Position numbers and translations under genes: made by a program
NCBI GenBank assembly: GCA_048885285.1
Contig: JBHLQA010000001.1
Coordinates: 1 to 26,326 of the forward strand
Reading direction: 5' to 3'
DNA from: Candidatus Odinarchaeota archaeon
GTDB lineage: Archaea; Asgardarchaeota; Lokiarchaeia; Sigyniarchaeales; SOKP01
Length of the DNA stretch: 26,326 bases
Part shown: positions 8,438 to 11,806 of the stretch, piece after piece
Numbering within the stretch: position 1 is the stretch's first letter
Layout: each line of letters begins with the position of its first letter
The notes under the pieces: generated by a model
What the model was told of the DNA's origin: nothing
What the model saw: only the letters and a program-made list of their open reading frames with translations
Databases searched by the model: none

Positions 8438-8938
8438 ATGCTTCTTACAATAACTTACTTTCATCAAATAAAAGGTCCAAGCGTATTAATATCTTATCCA
8501 GATGTTAACTTAGAAGAAGATATTGTAAGTAGGCTTCTTAAATTCTTTGATCTTGAAATTGATGAAACTTTTTTTGAAATTGTTCTGATAACTAAAAAAA
8601 AAAAAATAATCAATTTTCATTTTGAAATTCCCTCAGAGTGGGGACGAGGGAAAAAAGAATTTGCTATGTTGTCTTTAATTATGAAAAGAGAATATGAAAG
8701 TGAATTAGTTTATGCCTTTATTATTGACGCTTCTTATAAAATTCTTAAAACTAAAAATGTTTTTAAGGCTCTTTATAAGGATGATGACTTTCGTAACGGT
8801 AATGATTTAGAAATTGATATAACCTATGAACAGATTAGAAAAATACTATATAACTGCCTAAATAGTTTAATTTCAAGAATAGAAGATAAAATTAAAGGAG
8901 TAAATAGAAAAGATCCTTTTCCTTTCTCTAAAAAATAA
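8438..8938 (+). CDS. Stand-alone uDENN/longin-like domain protein (Asgard eukaryotic-signature type), 166 aa
   Basis: YFHQIKGPSVLISYP resembles the F.(H/D)...GP start of uDENN/NPRL2-type longins; EWGRGKKEFAMLSLI resembles the ARG..R motif of folliculin/SMCR8 longins. Confidence 0.6.
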   Translation: MLLTITYFHQIKGPSVLISYPDVNLEEDIVSRLLKFFDLEIDETFFEIVLITKKKKIINFHFEIPSEWGRGKKEFAMLSLIMKREYESELVYAFIIDASYKILKTKNVFKALYKDDDFRNGNDLEIDITYEQIRKILYNCLNSLISRIEDKIKGVNRKDPFPFSKK

Positions 8939-8971
8939 AAATTTTTATAATCAATTTATTCTATAACTATA

Positions 8972-9235
8972 TTGGGACAACTATGATTGATTAATAGCGT
9001 CATCGAGGGCACATATGATTATATGTGATTATGTAGCGCAAGGGTACGCTTACACTTGAGTTGATTAATCAGTAATTTTCCTGAACAAATGGGCTCTTAA
9101 CCTAGCAATGGTATATACCAATCGCAATGAAGTTTGAGTCAGTACCCAGACAGGAAACATGATTATGTCCCAAAAAGGCATATAAATTAAACGCCTAGCA
9201 CGAGAGAGCTATTTTGATTTTATGGAAAATCCATT
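8972..9235. ncRNA. Putative structured non-coding RNA of unknown family
   Basis: ~39% GC (93/240 hand-counted, 8971-9210) in an AT-rich convergent intergenic gap with no ORF of 60 aa or more. Closing helix TTGGGACA(8972-8979)/TGTCCCAA(9166-9173) plus at least five internal hairpins. Confidence 0.55.
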
Positions 9236-9287
9236 AAATGAGAAATAAGAGTTAGTGTTTTAGGCAACAATAATATGCTGATTTCAG

Positions 9288-9758
9288 CTATAGCATACCA
9301 ATAGAATCAGATCTAAATAATTCCTTCATTTCTTTACCAAGCTCTGCTTGATCAGATTGTAGATACCTTCTTAAAATAGATTCAAGCATAGGACCCCATT
9401 TTTTCATAATTGCTCGTATAAATCCTATTTGTGCATTTTTATCTGCAACAATACACAAAACTCCTTTACCAACTTTCATAGAAAAGATCATTCCTTCAAG
9501 ATATTCTGTAATTTGAAGATTAATAGCTCCATAACCCAGAATATGGCCTTGTTCCTCACCAGCAACGAAAACAGCACCACCTATAGCACCAATTTTCTCT
9601 ACAGAGATCCCATCACTATCAGAAAATTTAAATTTAGATTGACTTAAAATTGTTATTCCTGTATCATCTGTTAATAGAGCATACTTTAATCCGGGTGCAC
9701 TATTGATAATTTTGATTAAAATCTTTTTTAATCTAATCTCGTCCTCGGAATAATTCAA
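9288..9758 (-). CDS. Roadblock/LC7 (LAMTOR2/MglB-like) domain protein
   Basis: Pattern helix-LKYALLTDDTGITILS-VEKIGAIGGAVFVAGEEQG-ITEYLEGMIFSMKVGKGVLCIVADKNAQIGFIRAIMKK is the classical roadblock fold. Confidence 0.88.
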   Translation of the reverse strand: MNYSEDEIRLKKILIKIINSAPGLKYALLTDDTGITILSQSKFKFSDSDGISVEKIGAIGGAVFVAGEEQGHILGYGAINLQITEYLEGMIFSMKVGKGVLCIVADKNAQIGFIRAIMKKWGPMLESILRRYLQSDQAELGKEMKELFRSDSIGML

Positions 9759-9966
9759 TTATACATCAACCCATATTTTAATAATCTTATATTAACAGTA
9801 TCTTTAAGTTTAAAATCTATTTATTTAAACTTATCTTAATATTTTTAGCTTAATTCTGCTTTAGATAAAGAAGAAATTTTAAATATAAAAATGTTAGTTA
9901 AGTATCTAATTTTCTACGGGGTGCGATAAAAGATAATTTTAAACTCTTTTTCAGGAAGAATGTTCT

Positions 9967-10344
9967 CTAAAAAAGTTCTTGAGACTTAATTAAAGATTTT
10001 AATAGCTTTATACGACTCTTATTTTCCTTAGATTTTTCTAACAAAATCATTAGCTTATAATTCTTTGATTTATCTAAATCTCGTTTAACTTTAATCAGCT
10101 GAGAATCTTCTATAAAATCGCGATTCTTCGTAATCGCAGATAAGGCTAATGTATTTTCGAGAACCCATAATTTCTTTGAGATTTTTGAAGCAACTGGAAA
10201 ACCATGTCTGTCGGTTATGATACCTGCAACAAAATTAGGAAAGTTTTTTTCTATTCTATACAAGAAATACTTAACTTCACTCTCGTTTATTAGACTATCC
10301 AATAATACTACACCTAATGCATCAAATTGATTTAATATAATCAA
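9967..10344 (-). CDS. Divergent Roadblock-like protein
   Basis: EVKYFLYRIEKNFPNFVAGIITDRHGFPVASKI...ENTLALSA matches the first half of a roadblock domain; the C-terminal half is atypical. Confidence 0.55.
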   Translation of the reverse strand: MIILNQFDALGVVLLDSLINESEVKYFLYRIEKNFPNFVAGIITDRHGFPVASKISKKLWVLENTLALSAITKNRDFIEDSQLIKVKRDLDKSKNYKLMILLEKSKENKSRIKLLKSLIKSQELF

Positions 10345-10527
10345 GTTGATAGATTCTCATTAAATGTTATAATATGAAGATAATATCATTATCAAATCAA
10401 AAAAAGCATATAATAGTGAAATTAGGCATCAAACCTATGATATTGAGGATATTTAAGGGATTGACTATTATGCTATGATGAATTATAATTATTCTTCTAT
10501 AAGAATAATGAAAATTAAATTTTTTAA

Positions 10528-11505
10528 TTATTTAGGGTCTTTTTTTAATGATATACCTAAATTAAGATGCTCTACGAGCTCGCTGAAACGATTACGCACA
10601 GTAACTTCAGTAACACCACTGATTCGTGCTATTTTTCTCTGAGTTCTTCGTTCATTATTTAAAATACATGAAGCATAAATCGCAGAGGCACAAACTCCTG
10701 TTGGACCCCTTCCTGAAGTTAATCCACGCTCTTCTGCCATTCTAATTATTAATTTCGCTGTTTTTTGACATTTTGCCGGTAACTTTAATTCCGAACTAAA
10801 TCTCGTGAGATAATCCATAGGTCTAGTAGGATTTAATTCAAGTGATAATTCAATTGAAATAAATCTAAAAGAACGTCCAATTTCTTTCTTGTCAACACGA
10901 GCTACTTCAGCAATTTCATTCAAAGTTCGTGGAATTTTATACATCCTGCAAGCTGCATATAAACTTGCAGCAGCTACACCCTCTATACTTCTACCACGAA
11001 TTAAATGGGCTTCAACTGCATCTCGATATATTTTTGCGGAACATTCTCGTAAATTTTTCTGAAGATCTAAATTGGAGGCCATTCTATCAAGTTCACTTAG
11101 AGCAAATGTAAGATTTCTCTCAGTTGCATCAGATACTCTTATACGACTTTGCCATTTACGCAATCTATATATTTGACCTCTTAATTTGGCGGGTATTTCT
11201 TTTCCAAAAATATCTCTATTTTTCCAATCTATCATTGTACTGAGCCCTTTATCGTGTATCATATATGTCATTGGGGCACCAGTTCTAGTTCTCTTTTTTT
11301 TCTGATCTGCATCAAATGCCCTCCATTCTGGTCCACAATCTATATACTTTTCTGAATGAACTAAACCGCACTTTTCACAAACTATTAATCCTCTATTTTC
11401 ATCAAAAAATATATTTTCCCCACATTCAGAACATATATCATTTTCAAAAGTTATGAATTCTTCTGTTTCTGATTTCACTTCTTTCCAATTAGAAATATAC
11501 GACAC
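10528..11505 (-). CDS. tfb: Transcription initiation factor IIB (TFB)
   Basis: Zn ribbon CSECG...CEKCG, B-reader GPEWRAF, RLRKWQ..R, two cyclin folds ([14 protein letters not shown]; [13 protein letters not shown]), VTEVTVRNR. Confidence 0.98.
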
Positions 11506-11551
11506 CTTTTTTAATAATTATAATCTTACATTAATGAAATTCTTAAGAAAA

Positions 11552-11806
11552 CTAAACTATTTTAGTATAGAATTTTTCATCAGAATTGAATGATTGGGTT
11601 TGTAGAGTTTTAACAGATATAAAGGGAAACTCTATTGGACCAAAGATATCTTTAACATATCCAATTTTTTCATACTTTGCATTATAAATTGTGCTTTTTA
11701 ATATCTTTTCTAGGTTCTTATTCCACTCCTTTGCTCTAAATATTTGATGTTTTTTAGTTGATTCTCCAATATAGTATAAATTCAATGCAACCCAATTCTT
11801 TTTCAA
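11552..11806 (-). CDS. gar1: H/ACA RNP component Gar1/Naf1
   Basis: KIGYVKDIFGPIEFPFISVK motif; position directly upstream of tfb, as in many archaea. Confidence 0.85.
   Translation of the reverse strand: MKKNWVALNLYYIGESTKKHQIFRAKEWNKNLEKILKSTIYNAKYEKIGYVKDIFGPIEFPFISVKTLQTQSFNSDEKFYTKIV

Follow-up and report, generated by a model that had tools for sequence, protein, structure and literature searches.

A conserved three-hairpin RNA gene of Asgard archaea as a probable counterpart of the HgcG/Pab40 box H/ACA guide RNAs

What occupies the gap of about 350 bp that two convergent open reading frames (ORFs), at 8438-8938 (+) and 9288-9758 (-), leave between them in a stretch of Asgard archaeal DNA? 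The stretch, called the window here, comprises 26,326 nucleotides (positions 1 to 26,326 of contig JBHLQA010000001.1, assembly GCA_048885285.1, Candidatus Odinarchaeota archaeon, class Lokiarchaeia). An initial annotation, made from the sequence alone, described the gap correctly, put its G+C content at ~39% (we measured 35 to 39%, versus 20 to 28% in the flanks), and placed in it a structured RNA of a possibly new Asgard ribonucleoprotein (RNP) class. The gap does contain a genuine structured RNA gene on the + strand with its own TATA promoter motif, and the RNA consists of three hairpins of the H/ACA type in a fold backed by covariation. Its anatomy, predicted targets, and transitive homology to an Rfam family point away from a new class. 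It is very probably a box H/ACA guide small RNA (sRNA) with three modules, the Asgard counterpart of HgcG/Pab40/Pf7/Afu4, and would most likely direct the change of three conserved uridines in large-subunit (LSU) rRNA to pseudouridine (psi).

The argument starts with the fold. Single-sequence folding was modestly better than that of shuffles (z = -2.2 on the + strand and -2.6 on the - strand), and the structure was derived from alignments, with pairing after one partner strand had been slid serving as the control. In a MAFFT alignment of 35 sequences from the genus, 89.3% of cells are paired versus 28 to 39% in the slid controls, and 19 pairs show double changes. The family alignment of 13 genera, made with Infernal and thus fitted to the model, gives 90.8% paired cells versus 32 to 40%, with double changes in 40 of 51 pairs. 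For the 3' domain the values are 87.6% and 34 to 51%, and both sides have changed in 11 of 24 pairs. Conservation and covariation, the check that the initial annotation had suggested, are thus strong across the family.

Three long-range helices organize the RNA (all of its features lie on the + strand). Helix P1 (8972-8978/9167-9173) closes modules 1 and 2; its GGG/CCC pairs are invariant and its outer pairs covary in the family, which bears out a closing helix that had been drawn near 8972-8979/9166-9173. Kink-turn (K-turn) G.A motifs of the kind bound by L7Ae are likewise present, as had been predicted, but the one proposed next to the closing helix, a K-turn or selenocysteine insertion sequence (SECIS)-like motif built from UGAU (8984-8987) and UGAU (9160-9163), had been given the wrong partner strand. 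Positions 9160-9165 (UGAUUA) instead form Watson-Crick pairs with 9066-9071 (UAAUCA) in helix H4, outside the ACA box of module 2, where pairing holds in 99% of cells and compensatory changes affect five of six pairs in the family, including A>G/U>C in G019. The 5' AUGA makes its K-turn with the GA at 9058-9059, and the flanking pairs covary. Helix T1 (9177-9183/9273-9279), for which the support is strong, closes module 3; relatives replace it with GCGUGC/GCACGC, GAGCAU/AUGCUC, or GCAUGGGA/UCCCAUGC, and six genomes have lost both strands jointly. An identity as a SECIS element was rejected, as Rfam gave no such match and the element does not lie in the 3' untranslated region (UTR) of a selenoprotein gene.

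The K-turn formed by the 5' AUGA, Kt-1, is of the standard C/D type. Its bulged strand runs from 8979 to 8989 and its non-bulged strand from 9055 to 9062, with a canonical (C) stem at 8979-8981/9060-9062, a bulge at 8982-8984, the central pairs G8985.A9059 and A8986.G9058, and a noncanonical (NC) stem at 8988-8989/9055-9056. Three of its pairs covary: 8981/9060 (CG/UA/UG), 8988/9056 (GC/GU/AU), and 8989/9055 (GC/AU/GU). The C-box-like consensus is AUGAUGG, and the D-box-like sequence reads CUUGA here and CUGA in many relatives.

All three modules are built alike: a large internal loop, the pocket, separates a lower stem from an upper stem that bears a K-turn or K-loop, and an ANA box follows the lower stem on its 3' side. 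Module 1 (8996-9054) pairs 8996-9000 with 9046-9050 in its lower stem and 9009-9015 with 9030-9037 in its upper stem, which ends in a K-loop at 9016-9029 (U.U, G9017.A9028, A9018.G9027). Its candidate guides are CAUCGAGG (5', 9001-9008) and GCAAGGGU (3', 9038-9045), its ACA box (9052-9054) follows 14 nt after G9038, and 8999/9047, 9009/9037, 9011/9034, and further pairs covary. Module 2 (9078-9159) has a lower stem at 9078-9083/9151-9156, which switches among CCUG/CAGG, GCAAAA/UUUUGC, and CUGCA/UGCAG in relatives, and an upper stem at 9092-9096/9136-9140. Above these lie the K-turn Kt-3 (NC stem 9099-9101/9132-9134, A9104.G9129, U9103.A9130, bulge 9126-9128, C-stem 9105-9106/9124-9125) and a conserved, covarying apical hairpin (9110-9112/9117-9119); the 5' guide spans 9084-9091, the 3' guide is AGUACCCAGA (9141-9150), and the ACA box is at 9157-9159. 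Module 3 (9193-9269), which also covaries, combines the lower stem T2 (9193-9197/9261-9265), a short stem (9207-9210/9250-9253), the K-turn Kt-4 (NC stem 9212-9215/9242-9245, G9216.A9241, A9217.G9240, bulge 9237-9239), and a conserved, covarying apical hairpin (9222-9226/9230-9234). Its 5' guide (9198-9206) is the invariant CACGAGAG, its 3' guide lies within 9251-9260 (invariant GUUAGUG), and its ACA box (9267-9269) follows 14 nt after U9253. As a local variation, genus g22 (G081 and G079; L098 and L143) has 10 extra nt, GUUUCGGCUC, inserted between GUUAGUG and the strand of the lower stem, which lengthens the spacing from 3' guide to ACA.

Two of the hairpins drawn at the outset survive in this structure as apical hairpins, that at 9109-9120 (covarying at 9110-9119) and that at 9222-9234. 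The other four, at 9010-9027, at 9032-9054, at 9069-9084 inside GAGTT..GGCTC, and AGGC/GCCT across 9176-9196, are not conserved, their bases having different, covarying partners in the alignments. The pairings conserved in their stead are 9009-9015/9030-9037, 8996-9000/9046-9050, 9078-9083/9151-9156, 9092-9096/9136-9140, 9193-9197/9261-9265, and 9177-9183/9273-9279.

Rules for archaeal H/ACA sRNAs specify loop strands of 5 to 11 nt, a K-turn or K-loop, an ANA box, and 14 to 15 nt from the ANA box to the target uridine; the 3' guide weighs more than the 5' guide, and an unpaired UNN is tolerated (PMC2377435). Loop strands here measure 8/8, 8/10, and 9/7-10 nt in modules 1, 2, and 3. The GA dinucleotides of the K-turns and K-loop are invariant while the stems around them covary, and an ANA 3' of the lower helix is kept in all class- and phylum-level homologues. 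From ANA to the first base of the 3' guide there are 14 nt in modules 1 and 3. Module 2 has 16 nt here and 14 nt in lineages outside the Lokiarchaeia, where AACCCAG begins exactly 14 nt ahead of ACA; distances up to 17 nt are tolerated (PMC7075261).

Targets were sought in the LSU rRNAs of genomes from the same family, not of the window's own metagenome-assembled genome (MAG), with pocket borders set by the rules of PMC2377435. Bipartite complementarity around an unpaired UN was found in module 1, around UNN in module 3, and for the 3' guide only in module 2. Module 1 pairs with CUUGC-UU-CCUCGAU in the canonical UN mode through GCAA(G) of its 3' guide and (A)UCGAGG of its 5' guide, with 4 to 5 plus 5 to 9 bp. 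Of five genomes scanned, three (G148, G090, and G079) had this as their best match, and in G082 and G091 it fell just under the scan threshold. The predicted target is most likely the first U of CUUGC-UU-CCUCGAUG in the peptidyl-transferase centre (PTC), which we take to be E. coli 2496 and P. abyssi psi2588.

The 3' guide of module 2, (A)ACCCAG, is complementary over 6 to 7 bp to CUGGGU(U) in LSU GAGCUGGGUUUAGA, so that the predicted target is most likely the U that follows CUGGGU(U). This predicted site is that of H. volcanii psi2605 and presumably E. coli 2586. For both of these sites we assume that P. abyssi numbers exceed E. coli numbers by a constant 92 (2588 to 2496, 2678 to 2586), and such an offset agrees with how P. 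abyssi pseudouridines are spread over helices 89, 90, and 93. In module 3, UAGU and GAGAG pair in the UNN mode, with 4 plus 5 to 8 bp, with ACUA-UAA-CUCUC of helix 69, a match that recurs at the homologous position of five genomes. Most likely the predicted target of module 3 is one or both helix 69 uridines in ACUAUAAC; a UNUN-like mode using GUUA is possible. The site is presumably E. coli 1917, and perhaps also 1915 if the UNUN-like mode applies. A generic antisense search against rRNA returned duplexes at chance level, and one recurrent match, ACGAGAGAAC against GGUUUUCUCGUA at LSU ~427-440, was set aside as a misfit to H/ACA geometry.

Two rRNA genes of other genomes are unusual in themselves. 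The LSU sequence of G077 (L139) leaves all its relatives right after ...CUCUCUUAA, in helix 69/70, suggesting an insertion, an intron, or an assembly join. In G079, the 16S gene (L141/L142, contig C76) matches the Rfam small-subunit model in two abutting pieces, model positions 4-828 and 830-1343, and its 3' end is missing.

How widely is this RNA shared, and does it already have a name? It is present once in its own 3.48-Mb MAG and once each in 34 of 36 genus genomes, at 68 to 93% identity by blastn. Two covariance models, R1 for the core and the broader R2, were used for searches within the Asgard phylum. R1 found one full-length copy in 119 of 131 family genomes (E from 1e-28 to 1e-59), and R2 extended the set to the adjacent family f2, to other orders of the class (80 to 88 bits in f7), and to eight further families from other classes of the phylum, in sequences where the same motifs can be recognized. 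One weak R2 match, in G156 (L134), is a false positive; it lies at a different position from the HgcG match in that genome. A few nearly complete family genomes, including G063, G036, and G122, have no match to R1 or R2. G063, for one, is 100% complete and belongs to a genus that otherwise has the RNA. Loss, an assembly gap, or strong divergence could explain these absences.

Rfam returned nothing for the window at gathering thresholds, and at E<=10 only chance matches (mir-9413, SIB). The model RF00064 (HgcG, annotated as Pab40), by contrast, matches homologues defined by R2, at the same loci, in G187, G157, and G158; in G187 the match reaches 40.7 bits (E 3e-8) and aligns over all three hairpins. 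In all, RF00064 matches 8 of 41 Asgard genomes at 28 to 52 bits (E from 5e-6 to 4e-13), every one below the gathering threshold of 77 bits. Because the window itself is unmatched and the other Asgard matches are below gathering, the link to HgcG is transitive, running through our own models, and assignment to the family rests on this homology together with the shared predicted targets.

Other identities were considered and dropped. That the element is neither signal recognition particle (SRP) nor RNase P RNA, for which no signature had been noticed at the outset, follows from the location of both RNAs at other loci in genus genomes, and Rfam gave no match to either at this one. No tRNA or tmRNA was found in the window. 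A sarcin-ricin-loop mimic, a T-loop (UUCGA), a tRNA-Ala acceptor mimic (GGCUC/GAGUC), an Sm site, the GARAR motif of RNase MRP, and a U3-like RNA were judged by eye and abandoned for lack of support.

Comparison with described guides argues for the HgcG/Pab40 family. Pab40/Pf7/Pho40/Afu4 is an H/ACA sRNA with three motifs (PMC2377435). Motif 1 guides 23S psi2588; for motif 2 of Afu4/Pf7 the rules of that study yield the equivalent of Pab 2678; and motif 3 guides psi2016, which is one of two conserved pseudouridines in stem-loop 69. The Asgard RNA shows the same succession of three H/ACA motifs, a K-turn or K-loop and an ANA box being present in every one, and, when these assignments are combined with the sites in PMC7075261, the same three predicted 23S targets in the same order (PTC psi2588, the Pab 2678 equivalent, stem-loop 69). 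It also shares guide words with Pab40, CGAGG in the first motif and GUUA in the third. It differs in that the Lokiarchaeial sequences have diverged too far for Rfam to detect, in that a C/D-type K-turn brackets module 1, and in that P1, H4, and T1 enclose the ANA boxes; the Rfam consensus lacks this K-turn and these helices and consists of three free hairpins. Motif 3 would also fit U1917 in a UNN/UNUN mode, unlike the plain UN at the other helix 69 uridine in Pab40.

A further parallel is H. volcanii sR-h45, which guides psi2605, two bases after m3U2603 (H. marismortui 2619), as well as psi1940 and psi1942 of helix 69, the latter two in an unusual UNUN arrangement (PMC7075261). The predicted Asgard sites include the same conserved positions, psi2605 (SL1 of sR-h45) and psi1940/1942 (SL2), and sR-h45, of ~200 nt, has K-turns like the Asgard RNA and depends on Cbf5, as the Asgard RNA is predicted to. 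Its two stem-loops, however, are joined by a 56-nt linker and come in the reverse order (PTC first, helix 69 second), and it has neither a module for the CCUCGAU site nor a C/D-type K-turn. In eukaryotes, PMC7075261 cites snR191/U19 as guides of helix 69. The eukaryotic small nucleolar RNAs (snoRNAs) have the rRNA targets and the Cbf5/dyskerin chemistry that are predicted for the Asgard RNA, but they are two-hairpin H-box/ACA molecules that lack K-turns, and different snoRNAs serve the individual sites. Yeast psi2865, for instance, is guided by snR46, which is alike in the same respects.

The C/D-type K-turn invites a different reading, a box C/D-type RNA, either a methylation guide or U3-like, that binds Nop5 and fibrillarin through the K-turn 8982-8989/9055-9059 and a D'/C'-like K-loop at 9015-9031. 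Its C-box-like AUGAUGG and D-box-like CUGA, canonical in many relatives, do form a covarying K-turn, and the box order C, D', C', D is retained. Pab21 offers a precedent for joining the two motif types, as this H/ACA sRNA exists with and without a C/D motif (PMC2377435), and like Pab21/Pf1 the Asgard RNA holds an H/ACA module and a C/D-type K-turn in one transcript. Composite eukaryotic C/D-H/ACA small Cajal body RNAs such as U85 also combine both. The Asgard RNA departs from Pab21/Pf1 and U85 in that its C and D boxes stand on either side of one H/ACA hairpin, with no evident methylation guide sequence. The 24- to 25-nt spacers are not free guides, as membership of the C/D class would demand, but pair with each other and covary; no antisense match of at least 9 bp to rRNA adjoins a D box, and the same region obeys the H/ACA rules. 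We consider a C/D RNA very unlikely.

A reading closer to the initial annotation, and only slightly less improbable, is that the RNA represents a new Asgard class of L7Ae scaffold that guides nothing, its kink-turns serving only to assemble proteins and its H/ACA likeness being superficial. It has four kink-turn motifs, including a C/D-type one outside the Rfam HgcG model, and the features that set it apart from Pyrococcus H/ACA RNAs, longer upper stems and clamped ANA boxes, suit such a scaffold, as does the lack of an Rfam match to the window. Against it stand the three pockets, which match the same LSU sites in the same order as Pab40/Pf7/Afu4, the ANA spacing of 14 nt, and the HgcG matches to distant homologues.

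Several points nevertheless count against a guide of the HgcG/Pab40 family. The ANA boxes sit in internal loops clamped by outer helices instead of a free hinge or tail, unlike those of described H/ACA RNAs. Pyrococcus guides call for an H2 helix of 5 to 6 bp and an H1 helix of at least 7 bp (PMC2377435); the upper helices here have ~7 to 10 layers, and the lower stems have 5, 6, and 5 bp in modules 1, 2, and 3, with no extension other than the outer helices. Even in the Rfam HgcG consensus, however, the upper stem of motif 1 has 7 bp. RF00064, with its threshold of 77 bits, does not match the window. The rRNA of the window's own genome was not found, nor was that of G006 or G024. The 5' guide of module 2 has no complementarity beside the predicted target, and in this family its spacing to ACA is 16 nt. 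The module 3 match leaves three target bases unpaired and its 3'-guide duplex is just 4 bp long, and an alternative site, UAGC-UG-GUUCUC near LSU ~1000, scores similarly. All three targets are predictions, and their E. coli and yeast equivalents are presumed. Finally, the RNA-library contigs that cover the locus stem from relatives and are no proof of transcription.

The limits of the gene are set by conservation. It extends over ~310 nt (8972-9285, + strand), comprising the core (8972-9173), the 3' domain (9177-9279), and a short tail, and thus reaches well beyond the ~200 to 260 nt ending at 9235 that had been proposed; relatives have an oligo-U run 5 to 10 nt past T1, the last helix. A TATA box, TTTATAAT (8944-8951, +), is kept across genus and family. 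The conserved box reads TTTATAA(T) and lies ~24 to 28 nt ahead of 8972, where the first conserved RNA stretch, UUGGGAC, begins in the alignment. This position is the basis for assigning the + strand, as had been suspected, and conserved G-U pairs in the genus alignment are consistent with it. Contigs from metatranscriptomes, in four libraries of four studies (wetland, marine sediment, mangrove, and estuary), span 8983-9272 at 80 to 99% identity; they come from relatives, and assembled contigs cannot show transcription, RNA ends, or strand. The flanking genes had no cover in these four libraries, an absence that we do not use as evidence.

In G003, the unit 8938-9269 is inverted by itself relative to both flanks, so it behaves as an independent transcription unit. 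Such inversions could also be read as the work of a miniature inverted-repeat transposable element (MITE) or other mobile element, or the conserved sequence could be the 3' UTRs of the convergent genes. Neither idea is credible beyond the slightest chance: the element is single-copy, with one copy per genome, has a TATA box of its own, and keeps its structure across the phylum amid different neighbours. The copy-number check agrees on this with the initial annotation, which had also disfavoured a MITE.

Besides G003, six other genus genomes have the RNA gene inverted, there together with the upstream ORF, in otherwise collinear flanks (window 8438-9269; loci L029, L031-L034, L036, and L038 for all these inversions), and in three (L026-L028) the region of that ORF has been replaced. 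The upstream ORF (8438-8938, +) encodes 166 amino acids (aa) and has no Pfam match; the downstream one (9288-9758, -) is Roadblock/MAPKK1_Int-like. The latter opens a co-oriented minus-strand block (9288-11806) with Roadblock-type ORFs at 9288-9758 and 9967-10344, tfb at 10528-11505, and gar1 at 11552-11806, so that an H/ACA guide gene would abut a Roadblock/tfb/gar1 block; tfb-gar1 pairing is frequent in archaea.

More distant Asgard lineages have quite different neighbours. A TRM5/TYW2 methyltransferase gene adjoins the RNA in families f7, f8, and f17 (L110, L112, L126, and L127), phenylalanyl-tRNA synthetase (PheRS) subunits and tyrosyl/tryptophanyl-tRNA synthetase (Tyr/TrpRS) flank it in f8 and f21 (L124, L125, and L126), and in f2 it lies near a THUMP protein and a TrmY-like SPOUT protein (L113 and L114). 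In G187, one strand carries PheRS-beta, the RNA, and TRM5/TYW2 in that order. This tRNA-related neighbourhood may be the ancestral gene order. It also lends something to the idea that the RNA is itself related to tRNA, as a guide or cofactor for tRNA modification, but the focal family has different neighbours and the pockets fit sites in rRNA. A search for tRNA complementarity came back negative, in a test that is weak because only 7 tRNAs could be called in the MAG. A role in tRNA modification accordingly seems a slim prospect.

If the RNA is an H/ACA guide, its partners are at hand. Genes for Cbf5, Nop10, an L7Ae-family protein, and Gar1 are all present in the window's genome; the one for Gar1, an H/ACA RNP protein of 84 aa with PF04410 above cut-off at 11564-11698, is the gar1 at 11552-11806 (-), next to tfb and 2.3 kb from the RNA gene. 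In the proposed mechanism, L7Ae would bind the kink-turns, Cbf5-Nop10-Gar1 would dock at the ANA box and lower stem of every module, and both strands of each internal loop would pair with 23S rRNA on either side of the target uridine, which Cbf5 would then isomerize to pseudouridine. The elements beyond the HgcG plan may recruit Nop5-fibrillarin, stabilize the RNA in an AT-rich mesophile, or need to open before Cbf5 can dock. A bolder proposal, which we regard as rather unlikely, is a composite particle in which the C/D-type K-turn recruits Nop5-fibrillarin or a second L7Ae and the clamps lock the ANA boxes, so that one RNP coordinates the helix 69 and PTC pseudouridines or chaperones the region, and which would be ancestral to the split snoRNAs (snR191/U19, snR46, and others).

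In all likelihood, then, this RNA is a divergent, phylum-wide Asgard member of the HgcG/Pab40 family, ordinary in kind. We found nothing specific in the literature on an Asgard noncoding RNA of this sort, and the present one is the first concrete annotation of an Asgard H/ACA guide that we have found. In AT-rich Lokiarchaeia the gene escapes the curated Rfam model and is therefore missing from automatic annotation, and the covariance models and alignments obtained here could extend RF00064. With its additional C/D-type K-turn and its clamped ANA boxes, the RNA also poses a modest puzzle as to how Cbf5 would dock. If the predicted targets hold, a three-module guide for the most conserved LSU pseudouridines, those of helix 69 and two PTC sites, would be common to Thermococcales, Archaeoglobus, and the whole Asgard phylum, and with snoRNAs acting at the same positions in eukaryotes, this would support an old origin of these RNA-guided modifications.

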